Notes under the pieces: generated by a model
Told to the model about the DNA's origin: nothing
The model's input: the letters and a program-made list of their open reading frames with translations, nothing else
Database searches by the model: none
Assembly (NCBI GenBank): GCA_965204745.1
Contig: OZ242010.1
Location: forward strand, 3,936,001-4,000,000
Origin: Candidatus Latescibacterota bacterium
GTDB taxonomy: Bacteria; Latescibacterota; UBA2968
DNA length: 64,000 nucleotides
Reading direction: 5' to 3'
Part shown: one piece after another, positions 5,189 through 57,128 of the stretch
Layout: every line of letters starts with the position of its first letter
Numbering within the stretch: the stretch's first letter is position 1
Translations under genes and position numbers: made by a program

Positions 5189-5267
5189 AAGGTGTTCCTC
5201 GTAGGTTAAAGGTGATGTGTGAAACGCGAGATGCGAGAGGGGAGAAGACCGTGGCCCACAACCCCAA

Positions 5268-5295
5268 GTTGTCAGTTGTCAGTTGTCAGTTGTCA
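5268..5295 (+). repeat. (GTTGTCA)4 heptamer array
   Basis: Read directly; flanks resemble those of the IS982-occupied array at 15297. Confidence 0.85.
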
Positions 5296-5377
5296 GTCCC
5301 CGCCTCCGCCCTACCGCTCATCAATGTGATATTTGTTGTGCTGGTCCGAGATCATTAGGAGAACGTCGTATTGAGCG

Positions 5378-15213: not shown

Positions 15214-15366
15214 GGTGTCACGCACAGTAAGAAGTAAGAGGGGAGAGGCGAGAGGCAAGAGGCAAGAGGGGAGAAGGCTACCGCGCTGTTCCTCAAGTTG
15301 TCAGTTGTCAGTTGTCAGTTGTCAGTTGTCAGTTGTCAGTTGTCAGTTGTCAGTTGTCAGTTGTCA

Positions 15367-16393
15367 ATGCGAATTAAGAGTAGAAAGCGAGTAAGAAGCA
15401 AGCCGCGGTCAATCGCCCAAAGACATGAACGAGTAAGCCCTCATAGGATCGTACCCGAGACGCCATCGAGATGTTCGTCTTTCGTTCAGGATCGTACCCG
15501 AGACGCCATCGAGATGTTCGTCTTTCGTTCAATCCAACTGAACAAGGCCTCAATCGGCTGTCGTATGCTCGAAACCGCCCGAGAATAGTCTTTTTCGGCT
15601 TCGGTCAGGCTTTCTTGTCCCTTCTTGCGCTTCACCGGCGTCTCGAAGATCAGGTTCTGCTGTTTGCTAAGCGTGTCTTTTAAGGGCTGATCGGCGTAGA
15701 TTTTATCGCCGTAGAGGTGTCCATCACGCAAAACGGGTAAGACTTGTCGCAAAGCGGTCAGGTCATGCTCTGCTGCACCTGTCAAGCCGATGTACTCTGC
15801 TTTCGGGAGGCCGTTCTCACGGTCTTGTGCGACAATGTGCAGTTTGGTGCCGTAATACCACATCTTTTTGGAAGCGCAGCGGCCTTTGTTGGCCAGTTGT
15901 TCTTCGGCCACACACGCCTGACCGCTGCGTGCCGATTGTGCCATGACAATCGGCATGGAATCCACCAAGTAGGTGTGTTCAGAGAGATCGGTTGCGGGAC
16001 TGTCCTTTTGGATTTGTTCAATCAATGGCGCGAAGACCACACACAAGCGGTTCAACCGCTGGATATAGCCTGCATAAGTGGGCAGATGGGGAAACCAGTC
16101 GGAAAGATGATCCTTGGTATAGGTATAAATCGCCTTGATCTGCGTGTGCTGTTGCATGATCCCAAACAAATAGATCGTCAGCACTTCTTCATCTGTGAAG
16201 GTCGGCGTATCGTTATTGCTCATGCGTTCCGTATAAAACCACAGATGCTTTTGGTCATACTGCTGACAAATATAGACATACAAGTGAATGAGTTTATCTT
16301 GCCAATCCATCGCGTGCTCCTTCCTTTAAGGGTGAAATGACTGAGCCCTCAAGAAAAGACAAGTACGCGATGGATTCAACTCTTAATTCGCAT
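15367..16393 (-). mobile_element. IS982-family insertion sequence (about 1027 bp)
   Basis: Terminal inverted repeats ATGCGAATTAAGAGT[A/T]GAA at both ends; TGTCA on both flanks; exact end could shift by 1-2 bp. Confidence 0.88.
15374..16310 (-). pseudogene. IS982 DDE transposase truncated by a 43-bp tandem duplication
   Basis: VDSMP, YYGTKLH, GDKIY and RQPIE motifs; duplication 15445-15487/15488-15530 gives a stop at 15486; native tail YEGLLVHVFGRLTAACFLLAFYS* lies out of frame. Confidence 0.85.
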
Positions 16394-16456
16394 TGTCAGT
16401 TGTCAGTTGTCAGTTGTCAGTTGTCAGTTGTCAGTCCGCCCCGCCCAATCCCCGTC

Positions 16457-42933: not shown

Positions 42934-43068
42934 TTGCCTCTCGCCTCTCACCTCTCGCCTCTCGCCTCTCACCTCTCGCCTCTCACCTCTCGCCTCTCAC
43001 CTCTCGCCTCTCGCCTCTCGCCTCTCGCCTCTCGCCTCTCGCCTCTCGCCTCTCGCCTCTCGCCTCTC
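42934..43068 (+). repeat. (CTCGCCT/CTCACCT)n heptamer array; opposite-strand relative at about 42655-42718
   Basis: Read directly. Confidence 0.9.
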
Positions 43069-47970: not shown

Positions 47971-50900
47971 TCATTGGAAGTGGGAGTCGGGATAGAGGCT
48001 TCGGATGTAGGGTTCAATGGCTTGAGCGGTCGTGCGCGTAGCATTTTGCTCGATGACGTTCCCTCTGACGAGGGCCTCGTTCCGGAAGAAGAGGACGTAT
48101 CGAATGATCAGGATTATATCCGAGAACAGCCTCACATCGCCATCGCCATCCACATCGAGAATGTTCTGATTGACCAACGTGTCGAGGTAGGGTTCAATGG
48201 CTTGAGCGGTCGTGCGCGTGGCAGTTGGCTCGATGACGTTCCCTCTGAGGAGGGCCTCTTCCCGGAAGAAGAGGACATATCGAATGACCAGGATTATATC
48301 CGAGAACAATCTCACCCGGCCATCGCCATCCACATCCAAGTTGGCACTCGGGGTTTCGTCATCGATAATCGTCCCTGTGCCTTGCGCCGTGCTTATGGTC
48401 GCATTGGTCGCACTGCTCAACTCGACGATCACGGTCTCGTTCTGCTCATCATCCGAGTCGTCGGTCACAGAAACAGCGATAGTCTGGATGGTATCGCCCA
48501 TCGCGAAGGTCAGGGTCCCTGCGGTGAGCGCGGTGTAATCGGTCCCCGAAGTCGCGGTGCCCGTGCCCGCGTCTGCATACGCCACCGTCACTTGTAACGT
48601 GCTGTGCGCTGGGCGTAGGTACACCTGAAAGGTCAGGGTCGCGCCGGTCGCGCCTTCAATCACGCTTGGCGAACCGATACTCAGCGCAGGCATGCCATCG
48701 TCATCGATAATCGTCCCTGTGCCTTGCGCCGTGCTTATGGTCGCATTGGTCGCACTGCTCAGCGTCACGATCACGGTCTCGTTCGGCTCATCATCCCCGT
48801 CGTCGGTCACAGAAACAGCGATGGTCTGGCTGGTCGTGGTCGTGCCCGCCGCGAAGGTCAGGGTTCCTGCGGTAAGCGCGGTGTAGTCCGTCCCCGAAGT
48901 CGCGCTGCCCGTGCCCGCGTCTGCATACGCCACCGTCACCGCCTTGCCGCTCACCGCATTCAATCTAACGGTGAACGTCAGGGCAGTGCCCTCAACCGCA
49001 CTCGGCGAACTGATCGAGAGCCTCGGCGGCGGGTCATCATCGGTGATCGTTATCACGGGCGAGAGGACCGCAATGCCCTGGCCCTGGGCGGACAAGTCCA
49101 CGTTGCGATCAGCTTCGTCTAAGGTGTTGTCCACCGCTGTAATGACCACCGTATCCGAAGCGTTCGCGGTTTGCCCGGCCGCGATGGTGATCGTCGAATC
49201 CGCCCCCACCGTGTAAGCACCGGTCACAGGGCGCACCGTGATCGTCGTCGCCTCGGTCCGCGACCGTGTCAGCGTCGCGGTCACGGTACTCATCTCGCCG
49301 TTTTCCGAGATCGTCGAGGGCGTCAGTGTCGCCGTCACTATCACGGGTTGTCGCTGAAATTGCACGGTGGTGTCCATGCCGGCATACTTCAGAGCCGGAT
49401 ACTGAAGCATCGTGCCAAAGGTCCACGGGTCGGCGCCGGCCCCTCCTTGGCCGGCGTTGTTCCAGTTGTAGTAGGTGTCGCTGGTGGTGGCACCGTAGGT
49501 GGTGGGGCTTAGGAGCTCGCGGGTGGTTTTGCCAGTGCCGCCGCGGCTGGTGGGTTGCCCGCTGGTTTGGGTGTCCCAGTGGCTATTGACTGTATTATTT
49601 AAGGTGGCGCTGCCGTGTAGGTATCCTACCAGCCCGCCGACGTTTGAGGTTCCGGTGACTCGGCCGGTGGAGTAGGAGTTATATATGCGGGGACCGGCAT
49701 GCTGCACATGCCCCACCAAGCCGCCGACCCTACTGGCTCCGGTGACGGAGGCGTGGGAGTAGGATGACCGGATGATGCGCTCAAGAAAGGCGACTAGACC
49801 GCCCACATAATTGCCCCCCGTAACCTTGCCGGTGACGTAGCAGCCGATGATGTTGCCGTTGTTGTTTCTTACCAGGATGGAGGTGCGGTTGCCTCCGGTG
49901 ATGTCGGCGTTGGTTACGCCGAGCGACTCGATGCGGCCTTCGCTCCAAAGATGGACGAACATCGCTTGGTTTGCGACGCCGGGGCGGTTGATGAACAGGT
50001 TGTTGATGGTGTGTCCGTTGCCCCTGAAGGTGGTTCTCCATGCTGCGGTGCTGCCGACGCCGCCGATGGGCGTCCAGCCTGCGCCGCCGTTCCAGTAGGC
50101 ACCGCCGTGGTCGTTGGCGTCCACGTCGCCGTCTCCGTCGCTGTCGAAGTCCAAATCGGCGATGAGTTCGTAGCCGGTGCATGTCCCAGACGGGCAACCC
50201 ATTCGGCTACCGGAGCGGGTGTCGCGGTAGAGGAATGCGGCGTTGTACGTTGTAGCACCGCCGCTTGTGGGAGTGCCTCTGCCGTATCTGTCGTAGCGCA
50301 TCGCGTTGAGTTGAGCGAGATTGGAGACTTCGATTAGGCGGTCGTTGTCCGAGTCGTAGTCGCCGGCGCTCTGCTTTGAGAGGTCATGCCCGCCGTACTT
50401 TAGCGACGGGTACTGTCTGGAGTTGCCGAAGTACCACGGGTCGTCGTTGCCCGTCTGTCCGTCGATGTTGGCGTTCCAGTCGGCGTATATGCTACCGGCG
50501 GTGTAGTCGGTGGGGGCCTGGAGGGCGGCGGTGGCGTAGCCCGTTCCGGCTGCGCTGTTGGAGCGGCCGCTGGTTGTGGTGTCCCAGTAGCTTGCGGTTA
50601 CGGTTGCGCTGCTGACAAGCCCTATTAACCCGCCGATGTTGTTGCCGCTGGCGTTGACGCGGCCGGTGGAATATGAGTTTGTTATGTTGCTGCTTATGGC
50701 CCGCCCTATTAGGCCGCCGGCATTATTGGCGGCTCCGCCGACGGAAGCGGTGGAGTAGCTAGAGCTGACGGACGCATTGGATGCGTTCATTAAGCCTACC
50801 AGACCGCCGACATCGCTTCTGGAGCCGCTTACCGCGCCGGTGGTGTAACAGGCGACGATTGGTCCGTAACTGGTGCCTACCAGAATGCCGACATATTCCC

Positions 50901-52398
50901 GCGCCGTGACGTTGGCGTTGATTACGCCCAATGTCTCGATGGTGGATGCACTGGAATTTGCGCCGAACAGCCCGACGTCGTCGGTGCCGGTTCTATTGAT
51001 GACCAGGTTGTCTATGGTGAAGCCGTTGCCTTTGAAATTGCCTGAGTACTGGTTGCCGGAGTCGTCGCCTAAAGGATCCCAGCCGTTGCCGCTGTTGTAG
51101 TATGCGTCGGCGGCGGTGTGGTTGCCGTCGCCGTTGGTGTCGAGGTCGACGTTTGCGGTGAGTTCGTAGCCGACGCAGGTGCCGGACGGGCAACCCATGC
51201 GCTTTGTGGTGGAGGTAACGCGGTTGGGGAATGCGGCGTTGTAGTTCGCGGTATCAGTAGCGGCTACGACCCCATCGCCGTTGAGGTCGTAGCGGACGGC
51301 GTTGAGCTGAGCGTGGCCGGAAATCTCAATGTAGCCGTCTTCGTCGGTGTCGTAGTCGGTGAGGTGGTATATGAGCGTGGGATATGCGTTTGTGGCGCCG
51401 AAGTCCCAGGGGTCGTCCTTGCCGGTTGTCCTGTCGCTGTCGCCGTCGGCGTTGTCTAGGTCGATGTTCCAGCCGTGGTAGGTATCGGAGGAGGTTGCGC
51501 CGTAGGTGGTTGGGCTCCGGAGTTGGGAGGTGGTTCTGCCCACCGCGGTTTGGCTGCCGGCGCTTGTTGTCTGCATGCTGGTTTGGGTGTTCCAGTAACT
51601 ACCGGGAGCGTCGTACGCGCCGCCGCTTCCTAACAACCCGCCAACGTTTATAGAAGTGCCGGTGCGGGTAATCCTGCCGGTGGAGTAGGAGTTCCTTATC
51701 GTGGCACTTTGGCTTTGTCCCATCAGTCCGCCGACGTGATCAGCTTGTGCTGCGGTTCCGGTGACGGATGCGTGGGAGTAGCTTGTGGTAATGGCGTTAG
51801 AGTTGTTAGACCAGCCGACCAGTCCGCCAACGACCCTTGTTGCCGTAACGCTGCCGGTGGACCAGCAGGCGACGACTTCGCCTTGCAGGGCACCGACCAG
51901 AGCGCCGGCGTGACTATTTCCGGTAACATTGGCGTTGGTAATGCCGACGGACTCGATGCGGGCGGCACTGCTGGTTCTGCCGAACAATCCCACGTTAGTG
52001 GTGGAGGTTCGGTTGATGGTCAGGTTGTCGATAGTGTGGCCGTTGCCCTTGAAGTCGCCTGTGAATTCGGTGGTGGCTGAGCCAAGGGGATTCCAGTTGG
52101 TGTAGGTGGTTAGGTTGATGTCGGCGGTGAGTTCGTAACCGACGCAGGTGGCGGCGCAACCCATGCCGGTGGCGGCGTTGGGGAATGCGGCGTTGTAGTT
52201 CGCGGTATCCGTAGCGGCTATGACCCCATCGCCGTTGAGGTCGTAGCGAATGGCGTTGAGCTGGGCGTGGCCGGACACCTCAATGTAGTTATCGTTGTCC
52301 GTGTCGTAGTCGGTTTGGGCAAAAGCCGGCCCCGAATGCACCAGCATGCCCAGCGCGACCAGGGCCAACAAGCGAGATCTGAAAAGGGCGGTAATCAC
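47971..52398 (-). CDS. Large secreted adhesin-like protein: 3 GLUG-type modules, 2 Calx-beta-like domains, duplicated C-terminal DxDxDG domain
   Basis: GTG start with AGGAGG RBS, signal peptide, DYD.D.D..IE.S..AQLNA.RYD x3, VGGLVG repeats, GTATSGTDY...GTLTF, LDVDGDG x2. Confidence 0.8.
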   Translation of the reverse strand: MITALFRSRLLALVALGMLVHSGPAFAQTDYDTDNDNYIEVSGHAQLNAIRYDLNGDGVIAATDTANYNAAFPNAATGMGCAATCVGYELTADINLTTYTNWNPLGSATTEFTGDFKGNGHTIDNLTINRTSTTNVGLFGRTSSAARIESVGITNANVTGNSHAGALVGALQGEVVACWSTGSVTATRVVGGLVGWSNNSNAITTSYSHASVTGTAAQADHVGGLMGQSQSATIRNSYSTGRITRTGTSINVGGLLGSGGAYDAPGSYWNTQTSMQTTSAGSQTAVGRTTSQLRSPTTYGATSSDTYHGWNIDLDNADGDSDRTTGKDDPWDFGATNAYPTLIYHLTDYDTDEDGYIEISGHAQLNAVRYDLNGDGVVAATDTANYNAAFPNRVTSTTKRMGCPSGTCVGYELTANVDLDTNGDGNHTAADAYYNSGNGWDPLGDDSGNQYSGNFKGNGFTIDNLVINRTGTDDVGLFGANSSASTIETLGVINANVTAREYVGILVGTSYGPIVACYTTGAVSGSRSDVGGLVGLMNASNASVSSSYSTASVGGAANNAGGLIGRAISSNITNSYSTGRVNASGNNIGGLIGLVSSATVTASYWDTTTSGRSNSAAGTGYATAALQAPTDYTAGSIYADWNANIDGQTGNDDPWYFGNSRQYPSLKYGGHDLSKQSAGDYDSDNDRLIEVSNLAQLNAMRYDRYGRGTPTSGGATTYNAAFLYRDTRSGSRMGCPSGTCTGYELIADLDFDSDGDGDVDANDHGGAYWNGGAGWTPIGGVGSTAAWRTTFRGNGHTINNLFINRPGVANQAMFVHLWSEGRIESLGVTNADITGGNRTSILVRNNNGNIIGCYVTGKVTGGNYVGGLVAFLERIIRSSYSHASVTGASRVGGLVGHVQHAGPRIYNSYSTGRVTGTSNVGGLVGYLHGSATLNNTVNSHWDTQTSGQPTSRGGTGKTTRELLSPTTYGATTSDTYYNWNNAGQGGAGADPWTFGTMLQYPALKYAGMDTTVQFQRQPVIVTATLTPSTISENGEMSTVTATLTRSRTEATTITVRPVTGAYTVGADSTITIAAGQTANASDTVVITAVDNTLDEADRNVDLSAQGQGIAVLSPVITITDDDPPPRLSISSPSAVEGTALTFTVRLNAVSGKAVTVAYADAGTGSATSGTDYTALTAGTLTFAAGTTTTSQTIAVSVTDDGDDEPNETVIVTLSSATNATISTAQGTGTIIDDDGMPALSIGSPSVIEGATGATLTFQVYLRPAHSTLQVTVAYADAGTGTATSGTDYTALTAGTLTFAMGDTIQTIAVSVTDDSDDEQNETVIVELSSATNATISTAQGTGTIIDDETPSANLDVDGDGRVRLFSDIILVIRYVLFFREEALLRGNVIEPTATRTTAQAIEPYLDTLVNQNILDVDGDGDVRLFSDIILIIRYVLFFRNEALVRGNVIEQNATRTTAQAIEPYIRSLYPDSHFQ

Positions 52399-53029
52399 CT
52401 GAAACCTCCTAAAATATAATGAGTTGCACAGGCATGGCTTTTGCCTGCGTGCAAAAAATAATGATGGTGGAGACAAGTTAAGGTACCACGTCGTTTCTTG
52501 TCAAGGAAATTTTGGACCTACCCCCTAGCCCCGTTACTCGCAGGAAGGGGGGAATGGCGATGGGTTTTCCGAGGGGAATGGCGATAGGTTTTGCGAGGTG
52601 GGACCTACCCCCTAGCCCCCTTCCTAAGAGGAAGGGGGAACTGTGAGTGGTTTTGCGAGGGGATTGATGAGGGATTTTTAATCGCTTTATGCCCTCGCAC
52701 AACGCCATCAGAGTAGCCATTGATATAAGCCATCAAAGGAACTTTACTCCCCTTTCCTTGCAGGAAAGGGGCCGGGGGATAGGTCCCAAAGCCATCAGAA
52801 CAGCCCTGGATACAAATCTTCAAGAAAGCCATGTGCTCCCCCTTTCCTCGTAGGCACAGGCGTAGCCTACAATGAGCGAAGCGAATAACGGGGGCCGGGG
52901 GGATAGAGCTATGGCGGCGGAATGAGCAGGACATAGCGGAGTGGGAACGATAAAGCGGCGGTAGGGCGGTGGGGCGGTCTCACCTCTTACTTCTCGCCTC
53001 TTACTTCTCGCCTCTTGTATGTTGTCAGA

Positions 53030-53245
53030 AAGGGTTAATTTAGGTGTTGCGCCCTCGCATCGAGACACGCCATCTTGATGCCCTGCTCGGGGAAGGCCGG
53101 CGCCTCTTGAAGGCTATGACCTTGTAAGTAAGATAGGCCCCCTGACCGCCGAGTTGATACCGAAGAGTATCTAAGTCCATCGAGGCTGCATATACAAGAC
53201 CGGTAGACTGGGCAAACAGTCGGGACGCGAACCCGAGCGCACACC
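53030..53245 (+). ncRNA. Putative IS110 bridge RNA (ends approximate)
   Basis: Target loop 53095-53139 with guides CGCCTCTT and AAGTAAGA; donor loop 53158-53205 with guides AGAGTATCT and ATACAAGA. Confidence 0.82.
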
Positions 53246-53281
53246 AGACCCCTTCCCCACCCCTCATCACAGGAGGCCCCG

Positions 53282-54289
53282 ATGTCGAACACTCAACCCG
53301 CTTTTGCCGGCATTGATGTCAGTGCCCACACGTTGTCCGTTGCCCTGTCCAGACCCGGACAAGGGGTCATGCAAGCCACCTTTGACAACGCGCCTCGGGC
53401 GCACAAGCACCTGTTGAAGTGGCTCACCAAGGGCGGGCGCATGGTCTCGGTCTGTCTCGAAGCGACCGGGCGTTATAGCTTGGGGGTGGCCTTGGCCTTG
53501 CATCAGCATCACCGCACGCAGGTCATGGTCGTCAATCCCAAAGCGATGAGCAAGTACGCTCACGCCTGCATGCAACGGGCAAAGACGGATGCGAAGGATG
53601 CGTTGTTGATCCTCGATTATGCCGAGCGCATGCCCTTTGTGCCTTGGCAAGTGCCGAGCGAGCACGTCCTGCAACTGCAAACGCTGACCAGACGCATTGA
53701 CCAACTCAAACAGGAGGTCAGCCGAGAACAGAACCGGCACCACGCGCAGGACTACCCCGTCAAGCGTGCCCGCCTCATCACACGCGATATTCAGGTGAAT
53801 ATTCGACACCTCAAACGCCGCATTGCCTACTTGGAAGACCAAGCCCTCAAACTCGTTTTGCAGGACGAGCCCCAAAAGCGTGCCTACCAGCACCTCTGCT
53901 CGGTGCCCGGTATCGCCCAAACGAGTGCCTTGCGGCTCTTGGCCGAGCTGGCCTCCTTGCCAGACGGGATGGAACCGCCCCAATGGGTCGCTCATGCAGG
54001 CCTGGATCCCAAACCCAAACAATCCGGGACTGCCAATCCACAAAGACGCATCTCGAAAACCGGGAATAAGTACCTCCGTCATGCCCTCTATATGCCTGCC
54101 TGGGTGGCCAGCAGACACGAAGTCCATGTCAAAGCCTTCTATGACCAACTCATTGCCCGCGGCAAGAAACCTTTGCAGGCTATCGTTGCGGTGATGCGAA
54201 AATTGCTCCATGCGATCTGGGGCATGTTGCGGCATGACCAAGATTTTGAGGGCGAGAAATTCTATCGAATCGCCCCGCAATCCCCTTGA
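53282..54289 (+). CDS. IS110-family DEDD recombinase/transposase
   Basis: GIDVS, LEATG, KTDAKDA, SVPGI, AGLDP...QSG, ISKTGN..LR..LY and AVMRKLL motifs; AGGAGG RBS. Confidence 0.95.
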   Translation: MSNTQPAFAGIDVSAHTLSVALSRPGQGVMQATFDNAPRAHKHLLKWLTKGGRMVSVCLEATGRYSLGVALALHQHHRTQVMVVNPKAMSKYAHACMQRAKTDAKDALLILDYAERMPFVPWQVPSEHVLQLQTLTRRIDQLKQEVSREQNRHHAQDYPVKRARLITRDIQVNIRHLKRRIAYLEDQALKLVLQDEPQKRAYQHLCSVPGIAQTSALRLLAELASLPDGMEPPQWVAHAGLDPKPKQSGTANPQRRISKTGNKYLRHALYMPAWVASRHEVHVKAFYDQLIARGKKPLQAIVAVMRKLLHAIWGMLRHDQDFEGEKFYRIAPQSP

Positions 54290-54411
54290 CCTTTAAGAGA
54301 GTATCTTACTTCTCGCCTCTTACTTGGGGATAGGTCTTGCGGTGGGGCGGCGAGGATGGGCACGCACGGGCGGATGGGTGGCGCGGTGAGGCCGCACGGG
54401 TGGTTGAGCGG

Positions 54412-54473
54412 CCATGTCTTTGGATGATGGGTTGCGGCTTGCTTCTTACTCGCTTTCTACTCTTAATTCGCAT
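54412..54473 (+). mobile_element. Isolated IS982 right-end fragment
   Basis: Reverse complement matches 15367-15428. Confidence 0.78.
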
Positions 54474-56803: not shown

Positions 56804-57002
56804 CGCTTTCTCCAAAAATTGCGTTTGGATTTGCAATGGGAACAAGGTAGGGAACTGTATAAACCATGTCAACGCGCTCGTGTTTGCAGTGCAAATTTTC
56901 TCGGGAGGGTTCGCTATGCAGGCAGAAGAGCATCCCATCTATCGTGAATTTGACGGAGCGAAAAGTCGCGCGATTGAAGCGGCGATAGGGATGTGGGTGG
57001 AT

Positions 57003-57128
57003 CTTGCCTCTTCCTTCTTGCCTCTTCCTTCTTGCCTCTTCCTTCTTGCCTCTTCCTTCTTGCCTCTTCCTTCTTGCCTCTTCCTTCTTGCCTCTTCCTT
57101 CTTGCCTCTTCCTTCTTGCCTCTTCCTT
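57003..57128 (+). repeat. (CTTGCCT/CTTCCTT)n heptamer array, about 18 units
   Basis: Read directly. Confidence 0.9.

Follow-up and report, generated by a model that had tools for sequence, protein, structure and literature searches.

The stretch of DNA analysed here (the window, 64,000 nucleotides) is G000:C1:3936001-4000000 of the single 5.48-Mb contig of a Candidatus Latescibacterota bacterium. The host is sponge-associated, and the public runs that contain the sequence mostly carry sponge or marine metagenome labels. Positions 53016-54306 of the window hold a mobile element that interrupts a short tandem array. We read this element as an autonomous insertion sequence (IS) of the IS110 group with the working mode of IS621, the bridge-RNA element of Escherichia coli, and put the probability of this reading at about 0.9. 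The locus comprises the following features:

52980-53015, + strand: left part of an interrupted 14-bp (2 x 7) tandem array, from the sequence and Tandem Repeats Finder (TRF)
end of the left array part, + strand: left target CTCGCCT followed by the CT core (53014-15)
52981-92 and 52995-53006, + strand: spare intact target words in the left array part
53016-54306, + strand: IS110-family element, 1,291 bp including the right-hand CT core (54305-06)
53016-53281, + strand: non-coding left end, 266 nt, putative bridge-RNA template, starting with the right donor TGTAT
53018-53023, + strand: candidate -10 box TATGTT (predicted), starting 2 nt into the left end
53282-54289, + strand: gene for the recombinase (335 aa and a stop codon; domains DEDD_Tnp_IS110 and Transposase_20)
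54286-54291, + strand: candidate -35 box TTGACC (predicted), overlapping the stop codon, 15 nt from the right tip
54290-54306, + strand: right end, 17 nt, ending in the left donor AGAGTAT and the CT core
54307-54325, + strand: right part of the interrupted array, with the right target TACTT and a further intact word (54314-25)

The CTCGCCTCTTACTT array occupies 52980-53015 and continues at 54307-54325. An earlier note on this DNA, made from the letters alone, had proposed that removing the element restores the array in register. Excision of 53016-54306 in silico indeed places CTCGCCTCT next to TACTT with the register kept, and all coordinates given in that note proved correct when checked against the sequence. 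On the intact locus TRF calls the left part at 52978-53016 with a period of 14; on the rebuilt empty site it reports a period-14 array of 4.1 copies that spans the join. CT is present at both junctions (53014-15 and 54305-06). The local period of 14 reflects alternating heptamers, CTCGCCT and CTTACTT, which refines the earlier description of a heptamer repeat. Intact CGCCTCTTACTT words remain on either side of the element, as had been noted, at 52995-53006 and 54314-54325 (genome positions 3988995 and 3990314).

The recombinase gene is the sole convincing open reading frame (ORF) of the element. Its product matches the Pfam families PF01548 (4.9e-26) and PF02371 (3.1e-20), the two IS110 domains scoring 91.8 bits (cut-off 29) and 72.8 bits (cut-off 21.3). 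The only matches among solved structures are the ISCro4 transposase, a bridge recombinase and the best of the two (9t56, 3.3e-36 over residues 7-332), and the IS621 transposase (8wt6, 3e-33; phmmer). With both domains present and bridge recombinases as its nearest solved relatives, the protein belongs to the IS110 family, as had been proposed. Alignment to 8wt6 places D12, E60, D103, D106 and S248-G249 opposite D11, E60, D102, D105 and S241-G242 of IS621. The composite active site of IS621 is formed by D11, E60, D102, D105 and S241, with G242 (PMC11208158; here and below, published work is cited from excerpts of the papers). The numbering of the 8wt6 chain was taken to be offset by 2, from its 328 residues against the 326 residues given in PMC11208158.

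The left end of the element contains two predicted loops that carry four guide-like segments:

53085-53238, + strand: predicted bridge-RNA core (RNAalifold on 14 left ends; helix 1 with compensatory changes in 4 of 7 pairs)
53095-53139, + strand: predicted target-binding loop, from sequence, fold and copy comparison
53095-98 / 53136-39, + strand: closing helix GGCC/GGCC of the target loop
53110-13 / 53120-23, + strand: inner hairpin AAGG/CCTT of the target loop
53101-108, + strand: left target guide CGCCTCTT
53126-133, + strand: right target guide AAGTAAGA
53148-53213, + strand: predicted donor-binding loop, from sequence, fold and copy comparison
53148-55 / 53206-13 and 53158-62 / 53201-05, + strand: helices of the donor loop, the second being TACCG/CGGTA
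53174-77 / 53184-87, + strand: inner hairpin AGTC/GGCT of the donor loop
53164-172, + strand: left donor guide AGAGTATCT, the same as the final nine bases of the element (54298-306)
53192-199, + strand: right donor guide ATACAAGA, the reverse complement of TCTTGTAT

The donor-loop guides match the element's own joined ends over 9 nt and 8 nt. Of 200,000 shuffled left ends, none contained all four guide words, and multiplying the frequencies of the individual words gives 5e-9; chance does not explain their presence. The four-guide layout of the IS621 type, which the earlier note had recognised, follows the strand rules of PMC11208160. According to these rules, 4-7 nt of the 3' guide side are paired with the top strand, and all four guide pairings include the core.

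To obtain a consensus fold, 14 left ends from ten genomes were aligned with MAFFT and analysed with RNAalifold. The consensus has an outer helix around two modules of stem, internal loop and hairpin, with the guides in the internal loops, and this two-loop structure is conserved across the set. At the consensus pairs 90.8% of the cells are paired, compared with 25-51% for slid partners, and compensatory changes on both sides are found in 16 of 32 pairs, compared with 4-8 for slid partners; the consensus was predicted on the alignment used for these counts, which favours it somewhat. The covariation score was equalled in 0 of 500 shuffles. In the window copy the outer helix pairs GCTCGGG (53085-91) with CCCGAGC (53232-38), the partner strand being taken directly from the sequence because MAFFT had displaced a 6-nt indel.

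A blastn search of the genome returned 76 segments, 52 of which are full-length copies of the element. The ORF is intact at 335 aa in 51 copies and shortened to 262 aa in one; 34 copies encode an identical protein. Their left ends fall into ten distinct sequences (three with 34, 8 and 3 members, and seven singletons), which contain four guide pairs in three families:

Guide set B, 45 copies: left target guide CCCCTCTT, reverse complement of the right guide TCTTACCT
Guide set A, 4 copies: left target guide CGCCTCTT, reverse complement of the right guide TCTTACTT
Guide set A, second version, 2 copies: left target guide TGCCTCTT, reverse complement of the right guide TCTTACTT
Singleton (u5), 1 copy: left target guide TCCCTCTC, reverse complement of the right guide TCTCACCT

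The donor-loop guides are identical in nine of the ten left-end variants, with one base altered in the left donor guide of u5. Likewise, 51 of the 52 copies begin with TGTAT after a CT and end in GTATCT, the exception being c5198949, whose left tip is damaged. Segmental duplication as the source of the copies was rejected for the five A copies examined. Similarity of their flanks extends about 25 bp to the left and 50-70 bp to the right; since the more distal flanks are unrelated, these copies are separate insertions. At G000:C1:1121591-1124180 two full copies lie in the same orientation 7 bp, or one heptamer unit, apart; because their left-end variants differ, they arose by independent insertion into neighbouring units rather than by duplication.

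Two unusual copies deserve mention. Copy c602782 (G000:C1:602782-604074) is chimeric: its target guides are of type A, its tip is unique and the distal part of its left end is B-like, which suggests recombination or gene conversion between resident copies. At G000:C1:2972675-2972850 a miniature derivative is located in a heptamer array. It consists of left-end nucleotides 15-184, comprising the target loop and most of the donor loop, joined to the last 8 nt of the right end, and the fusion point is the right donor guide.

We compared the five bases on each side of the CT with the guides of the same copy for all 52 copies, including the one with the damaged tip. At the ten non-core positions 23 copies show full Watson-Crick pairing with their own guides, and a further 19 have nine Watson-Crick pairs and one wobble. 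When each flank was compared with all four guide pairs, the copy's own pair was strictly the best in 44 of 52 cases and tied in 1. Copies with A guides have the right flank TACTT in 4 of 6 cases, those with B guides in 1 of 45 (Fisher p = 2.9e-4); for a purine at left position -4 the counts are 5 of 6 and 4 of 45, respectively (p = 3.0e-4). The singleton c1297036 amounts to a double compensatory case: both of its guides are changed (TCCCTCTC, AGGTGAGA), and its flanks read TCCCT-CT-CACCT. The earlier note had named insertions at sites unrelated to the guides as an outcome that would speak against it. The outcome supports the note: the 52 copies and the relatives in other genomes (see below) show co-variation of guides and flanks.

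The genome contains 815 arrays with a period of 7n, covering 43.5 kb of 5.48 Mb (0.8%). Of the 52 insertion points in rebuilt empty sites, 46 lie inside such an array and 2 within 20 bp of one, while 4 are near none. Counts of filled and empty sites for individual words are as follows:

CCCCT-CT-TACCT (exact B word): 20 filled, 5 empty
CCCCT-CT-TGCCT (one rU:dG wobble): 16 filled, 65 empty
TACCT-CT-TACCT (two mismatches): 4 filled, 83 empty
TGCCT-CT-TGCCT (commonest word): 0 filled, 241 empty
CACCT-CT-CACCT: 0 filled, 117 empty

The two commonest heptamer words are unoccupied; the element is selective among heptamers. The occupancy falls from 80% through 20% and 5% to 0% with growing mismatch and constitutes a natural specificity experiment. 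From this distribution, rG:dT and rU:dG wobbles seem to be tolerated, whereas a pair of mismatches in the left arm mostly is not. Another class of heptamer arrays, unrelated to the first (AGTTGTC/GTCAGTT and relatives), is the commonest by TRF unit genome-wide and is used by 0 of the 52 copies; in the window it is found, for instance, at 5267-5297, 15296-15366, 16393-16435, 42936-43068 and 57002-57128.

The 14-nt target corresponds to exactly two heptamer units, the left target CTCGCCT and then CT with the right target (CTTACTT). As both units begin with CT, each unit supplies its own CT core. Specificity is, judging from the words read, carried by the variable middle bases of the units:

Subfamily A: CTCGCCT/CTTACTT
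Subfamily B: CTCCCCT/CTTACCT
Singleton: CTTCCCT/CTCACCT
Relative in genome G091: CTCGCCT/CTCCC

The A word is found in short arrays of 2-4 units nested in a dispersed composite repeat that occurs at dozens of loci, and A-type empty sites are accordingly present at dozens of places in the genome. Seventy-one A words, wobbles included, remain, many of them at unoccupied copies of the composite repeat. Because its words ride on this dispersed repeat, the distribution of subfamily A resembles that of repetitive extragenic palindromic (REP) elements, although the site itself is non-palindromic. Neither in this genome (G000) nor in G091 are the targets REP elements; the sites are non-palindromic heptamer words in tandem arrays. 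In 38 of the 52 rebuilt empty sites the insertion point lies in a stop-free frame of at least 150 codons, but CT-rich repeats in a GC-rich genome are stop-poor anyway. Such frames therefore say nothing about coding.

We found 26 related loci in other genomes, 25 in two Latescibacterota metagenome-assembled genomes (MAGs) and one in a Gemmatimonadota MAG:

OZ251458 (G091), a Latescibacterota MAG chromosome: 18 loci, 73-75% amino acid identity
OY282377 (G082), a Latescibacterota MAG: 7 loci, 77-79% amino acid identity
Gemmatimonadota MAG: 1 locus, 48% amino acid identity

At E <= 1e-30, matches are present in 14 of 168 genomes of the phylum and in 3 of 21 of the genus, G000 included. The G091 copies have the guide CTCGCCTCT and a right-guide complement TCTCCCT, and 17 of the 18 loci lie in arrays of the CTCGCCT/CTCCCGT type. 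In G082 the left guide is ATCC(T/C)CCTT with TCTTTTCT (copy L032 has TCTTTCCT); the right flank is CT-TTTCT at 7 of 7 loci, the left match is variable, and heptamer arrays are found at 0 of 7. The match of the right donor guide is poorer in both G082 and G091, where TGT is followed by a mismatch. Co-changing guides and flanks are also seen in at least eight further guide sets from seven other genomes. Distant relatives, with identities of 48-63%, pair with the flanks of their own loci. Within the group of 52-63% identity, the left target match is 9/9 for L062 and the right target match 5/5 for L064 and L066. The right target also matches at 5/5 positions in L056 and in L063, and the changed right end of the latter, GAAAACCT, is mirrored by a donor guide reading GAAAACC. 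In L075 and L080 the right flank is CT-AACGT and the guide complement TCTAACGT; in the Gemmatimonadota copy the flank is CT-AACGG and the guide complement TCTAACGG. L060, L063, L075 and L080 adjoin palindromic, REP-like repeats.

The abundance of heptamer arrays differs sharply within the genus. The pattern (CCTCTNN)x3+CCTCT occurs 528 times in G000, 219 times in G091 and 0-1 times in each of the 19 other genus genomes, including G082. Counts for the single-unit pattern are 147 in G000, 30 in G091 and 0 in G082 and the other genus genomes. The reversed control pattern is abundant in G091 as well (135 and 147 matches), so TCTCC-type arrays are present there too. These counts offer a lead, drawn from two related genomes, that guides may read heptamers only where heptamer arrays abound.

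How the element might move can be outlined by homology. The candidate boxes TTGACC and TATGTT are 17 bp apart on the joined ends. TTGAC is present at the same distance from the tip in copies from G082, G091, G101, G128, G152, G041 and G097 and in the Gemmatimonadota copy, and at 16 nt in subfamily B; this distance is kept in all but one relative examined. In IS621 the circle rebuilds a promoter across the core, donor trimming removes the -35 box, and recombination is supported by a left-end transcript supplied in trans with a minimal donor (PMC11208160). The present element would leave its site as a circle, and joining of the right and left ends would place the -35 box TTGACC 17 bp from the -10 box TATGTT. 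A bridge RNA of about 200 nt would then be transcribed from the left end and bound by the recombinase, which consists of a DEDD RuvC-like domain and a Tnp domain with a catalytic serine. The donor loop would pair with the circle junction AGAGTAT-CT-TGTAT and the target loop with the 14-nt genomic word, followed by strand exchange at the CT core. An RNA made only on the circle would stay coupled to the copy that it guides. This would be the reason why A and B copies sit mostly at their own words despite identical donor ends, and the best fit of 44 of 52 copies with their own guides is consistent with such cis-coupling of guide and element.

Several observations count against the proposed mode of action. 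Guide and flank are unpaired at 1-3 positions in 10 of the 52 copies. In 7 of 52 another subfamily's guide pair fits the flanks better; these comprise four B copies located in TACCT-CT-TACCT, a further two B copies in CCCCT-CT-CCCGT, and the chimera c602782, whose flanks fit the singleton's guides at 10 of 10 positions. Locus L031 in G082 fits its left guide at just 2 of 5 positions. Besides the favourable bias in the pair counts mentioned above, the single-sequence fold of the left end is not unusually stable (z = -1.04), and an Rfam scan gave matches at chance level only (E >= 4) and no bridge-RNA family. The promoter boxes were judged by the sigma-70 consensus, which is not validated for the host phylum. 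There is no RNA run among the listed public runs that contain the sequence, and the assembly contains no instance of the circle junction GAGTATCTTGTAT, which is not expected there anyway. In assembled contigs of four runs from four studies, which are short, break in repeats and tell nothing about activity, none joins 53015 to 54307 (empty site) or 54306 to 53016 (circle). Two low-depth joints in X5, 52823>54339 and 52910>54369 (shorter sides of 36 and 21 nt), lie off the element ends; we read them as cross-matches between the flanking repeats.

Two alternatives do without an RNA guide. The site might be chosen by the recombinase, or by the DNA structure of polypyrimidine heptamer tracts, with the guide-flank matches incidental. 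All targets in G000 and G091 are indeed pyrimidine-rich on one strand, and a preprint on ISPpu10 reports the stem-loop of the target as an additional layer of specificity. It is hard to see, however, why the commonest heptamer words should then be empty and a rare exact word 80% filled. Moreover, guides and flanks change together within this genome (A, B and the singleton) as well as in no fewer than eight guide sets from elsewhere, and there are relatives whose targets are not polypyrimidine; we consider this explanation very improbable. It is at least as improbable, and in our view slightly more so, that the left-end segments act as DNA, through att-like homology with the target. Such a role would agree with the fact that no transcript has been seen, there being no RNA run among those listed, but the two target halves are in opposite senses with a conserved hairpin between them, and the helices are kept by compensatory changes. 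Opposite-sense halves in covarying helices fit an RNA and do not fit a DNA crossover site, and homologues have solved RNA-protein-DNA complexes.

Recognition by a bridge RNA leaves the biological role of the arrays to be weighed. The earlier note saw in them a renewable intergenic safe harbour, for which the support is local to the window copy: it lies between divergent Calx-beta/GLUG and major facilitator superfamily (MFS) genes, and spare intact words flank it. Mixed-unit arrays can also, in principle, make new words by slippage. With the same mechanism, guides may simply have drifted onto an abundant CT-containing repeat, the arrays being neither selected nor renewable and the insertions neutral or mildly harmful. 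We give this even odds. The G082 relative, which has no such arrays, has guides that read another site, and more distant relatives adjoin palindromic repeats. Because 20 of the 25 exact words of subfamily B are filled, its sites look limiting rather than renewed, and apart from the one pair of copies 7 bp apart there is no repeated refilling at any locus.

A further observation concerns the right-donor half-site of the element. The 10-mer CT+TGTATCTT, which combines the core with the initial 8 nt of the left end of subfamily B, is found about 150 times beyond the IS copies, where about 10 would be expected (two strands of 5.48 Mb over 4^10). Examples are the flank of copy c2713405 and the G091 loci L041, L048 and L053. 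In 88 cases the 10-mer opens a conserved module, about 34 nt long, CTTGTATCTT(T/C)GGGCGAGCACGGGGGCATCGCCC, with a hairpin, and in 15 it sits before a REP-like unit; conservation begins at the CT. Apart from IS right ends and donor guides, the genome shows no enrichment of the left-donor sequence GAGTATCT. The 88-copy module was rejected as a classical two-ended miniature inverted-repeat transposable element (MITE) of the element, for it has no matching left-donor end.

It is conceivable, but unlikely, that the element and the CT-rich heptamer arrays form a co-evolving pair, and that the element is not a parasite using a pre-existing landing pad. Half-site or in-trans reactions of the bridge recombinase might then help to spread or reshape the repeats. 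The basis for this suggestion is that the arrays are abundant only in the two genus genomes whose copies read them, the guides in G082 being different, and that the 88-copy 34-nt module starts with the element's right-donor half-site. If it were true, the diversification of the A, B and singleton guides would amount to niche partitioning of a combinatorial space of two-unit words.

The IS110-group bridge element described here shares many features with IS621: both Pfam domains, the aligned DEDD and Ser-Gly residues, a long left end and a short right end, the CT core, a candidate -35 box in the right end, and a predicted two-loop RNA with 5' guides in the top-strand sense and 3' guides antisense. 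The donor junction of IS621 is very close to AGAGTAT-CT-TGTAT. The two differ in that the protein match is remote and in that IS621 targets palindromic REP elements, whereas the present element targets two-heptamer-unit words in tandem arrays; moreover, one genome contains 52 copies of it with three families of guides, and its host is a Latescibacterota bacterium associated with sponges. The targeting of REP elements by IS621, mentioned in the earlier note, is stated in PMC11208160, as is the IS110-group layout, in which a long non-coding left end precedes the gene and the right end is short. ISPpu9 and ISPpu10 of Pseudomonas putida are likewise multi-copy IS110 elements that enter repeated intergenic sequence. 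Their targets (REP or conserved intergenic sequences) are palindromic, unlike the heptamer words. The seekRNA elements of the IS1111 group (ISEc11, IS4321/IS5075 and the attC group; PMC11187229) are also RNA-guided DEDD transposases with natural retargeting by guide change. They have their long non-coding region downstream of the gene and subterminal inverted repeats, whereas our element is laid out as in the IS110 group.

The mechanism and the family are thus already known (PMC11208160, PMC11208158, PMC11187229); as far as the excerpts go, it is the natural target class that is unusual. Our literature search, which did not extend to the supplementary target tables of surveys, found no report of an IS110 or bridge-RNA element targeting a microsatellite or heptamer array. 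The term 'tandem repeat' in the excerpts of 10.1101/2025.10.25.684509, 10.64898/2026.08.14.744561 and 10.64898/2026.10.21.760802 refers to duplicated cargo, units inside expanded loci, or guide arrays. Heptanucleotide repeats in Geobacter are described in PMC2700814 without a link to insertions in the text available, and the word 'tandem' does not occur in the excerpts of PMC11187229.

The element widens the natural target range of its class to tandem heptamers, where the 14-nt window equals two units and a CT core recurs every 7 bp. Known targets of bridge-RNA elements are palindromic REP elements, attC sites and transposon ends. With 52 insertions, three guide families and one shared donor, the genome is an unusually clear natural archive of reprogrammed guides and tolerated mismatches, and it complements the laboratory mismatch screens on IS621. 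The element itself, a compact and apparently recently active orthologue from an uncultured sponge symbiont, is a possible candidate for a genome-engineering tool.

The neighbours of the element are a gene for a Calx-beta/GLUG protein and an MFS transporter gene, which are divergently oriented. The former (47971-52476, - strand) encodes a protein of 1,501 aa with Calx-beta and GLUG motifs, a weak dockerin match and internal repeats of about 180 nt, and lies just upstream of the repeat-filled intergenic region. This region is, at 52740-52915 and 54326-54440, a mosaic of dispersed short repeats with the units CCCCTTTCCTTGCAGGAAAGGGGCCGGGGGATAGGTC, CTCGTAGGCACAGGCGTAGCCTACAATGAGCGAAGCGAATAAC and GGGGATAGGNCTTGCGGTNGGGCGG. 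The same units recur beside the G082 and G091 copies and have a very high summed contig depth in sponge metagenomes.

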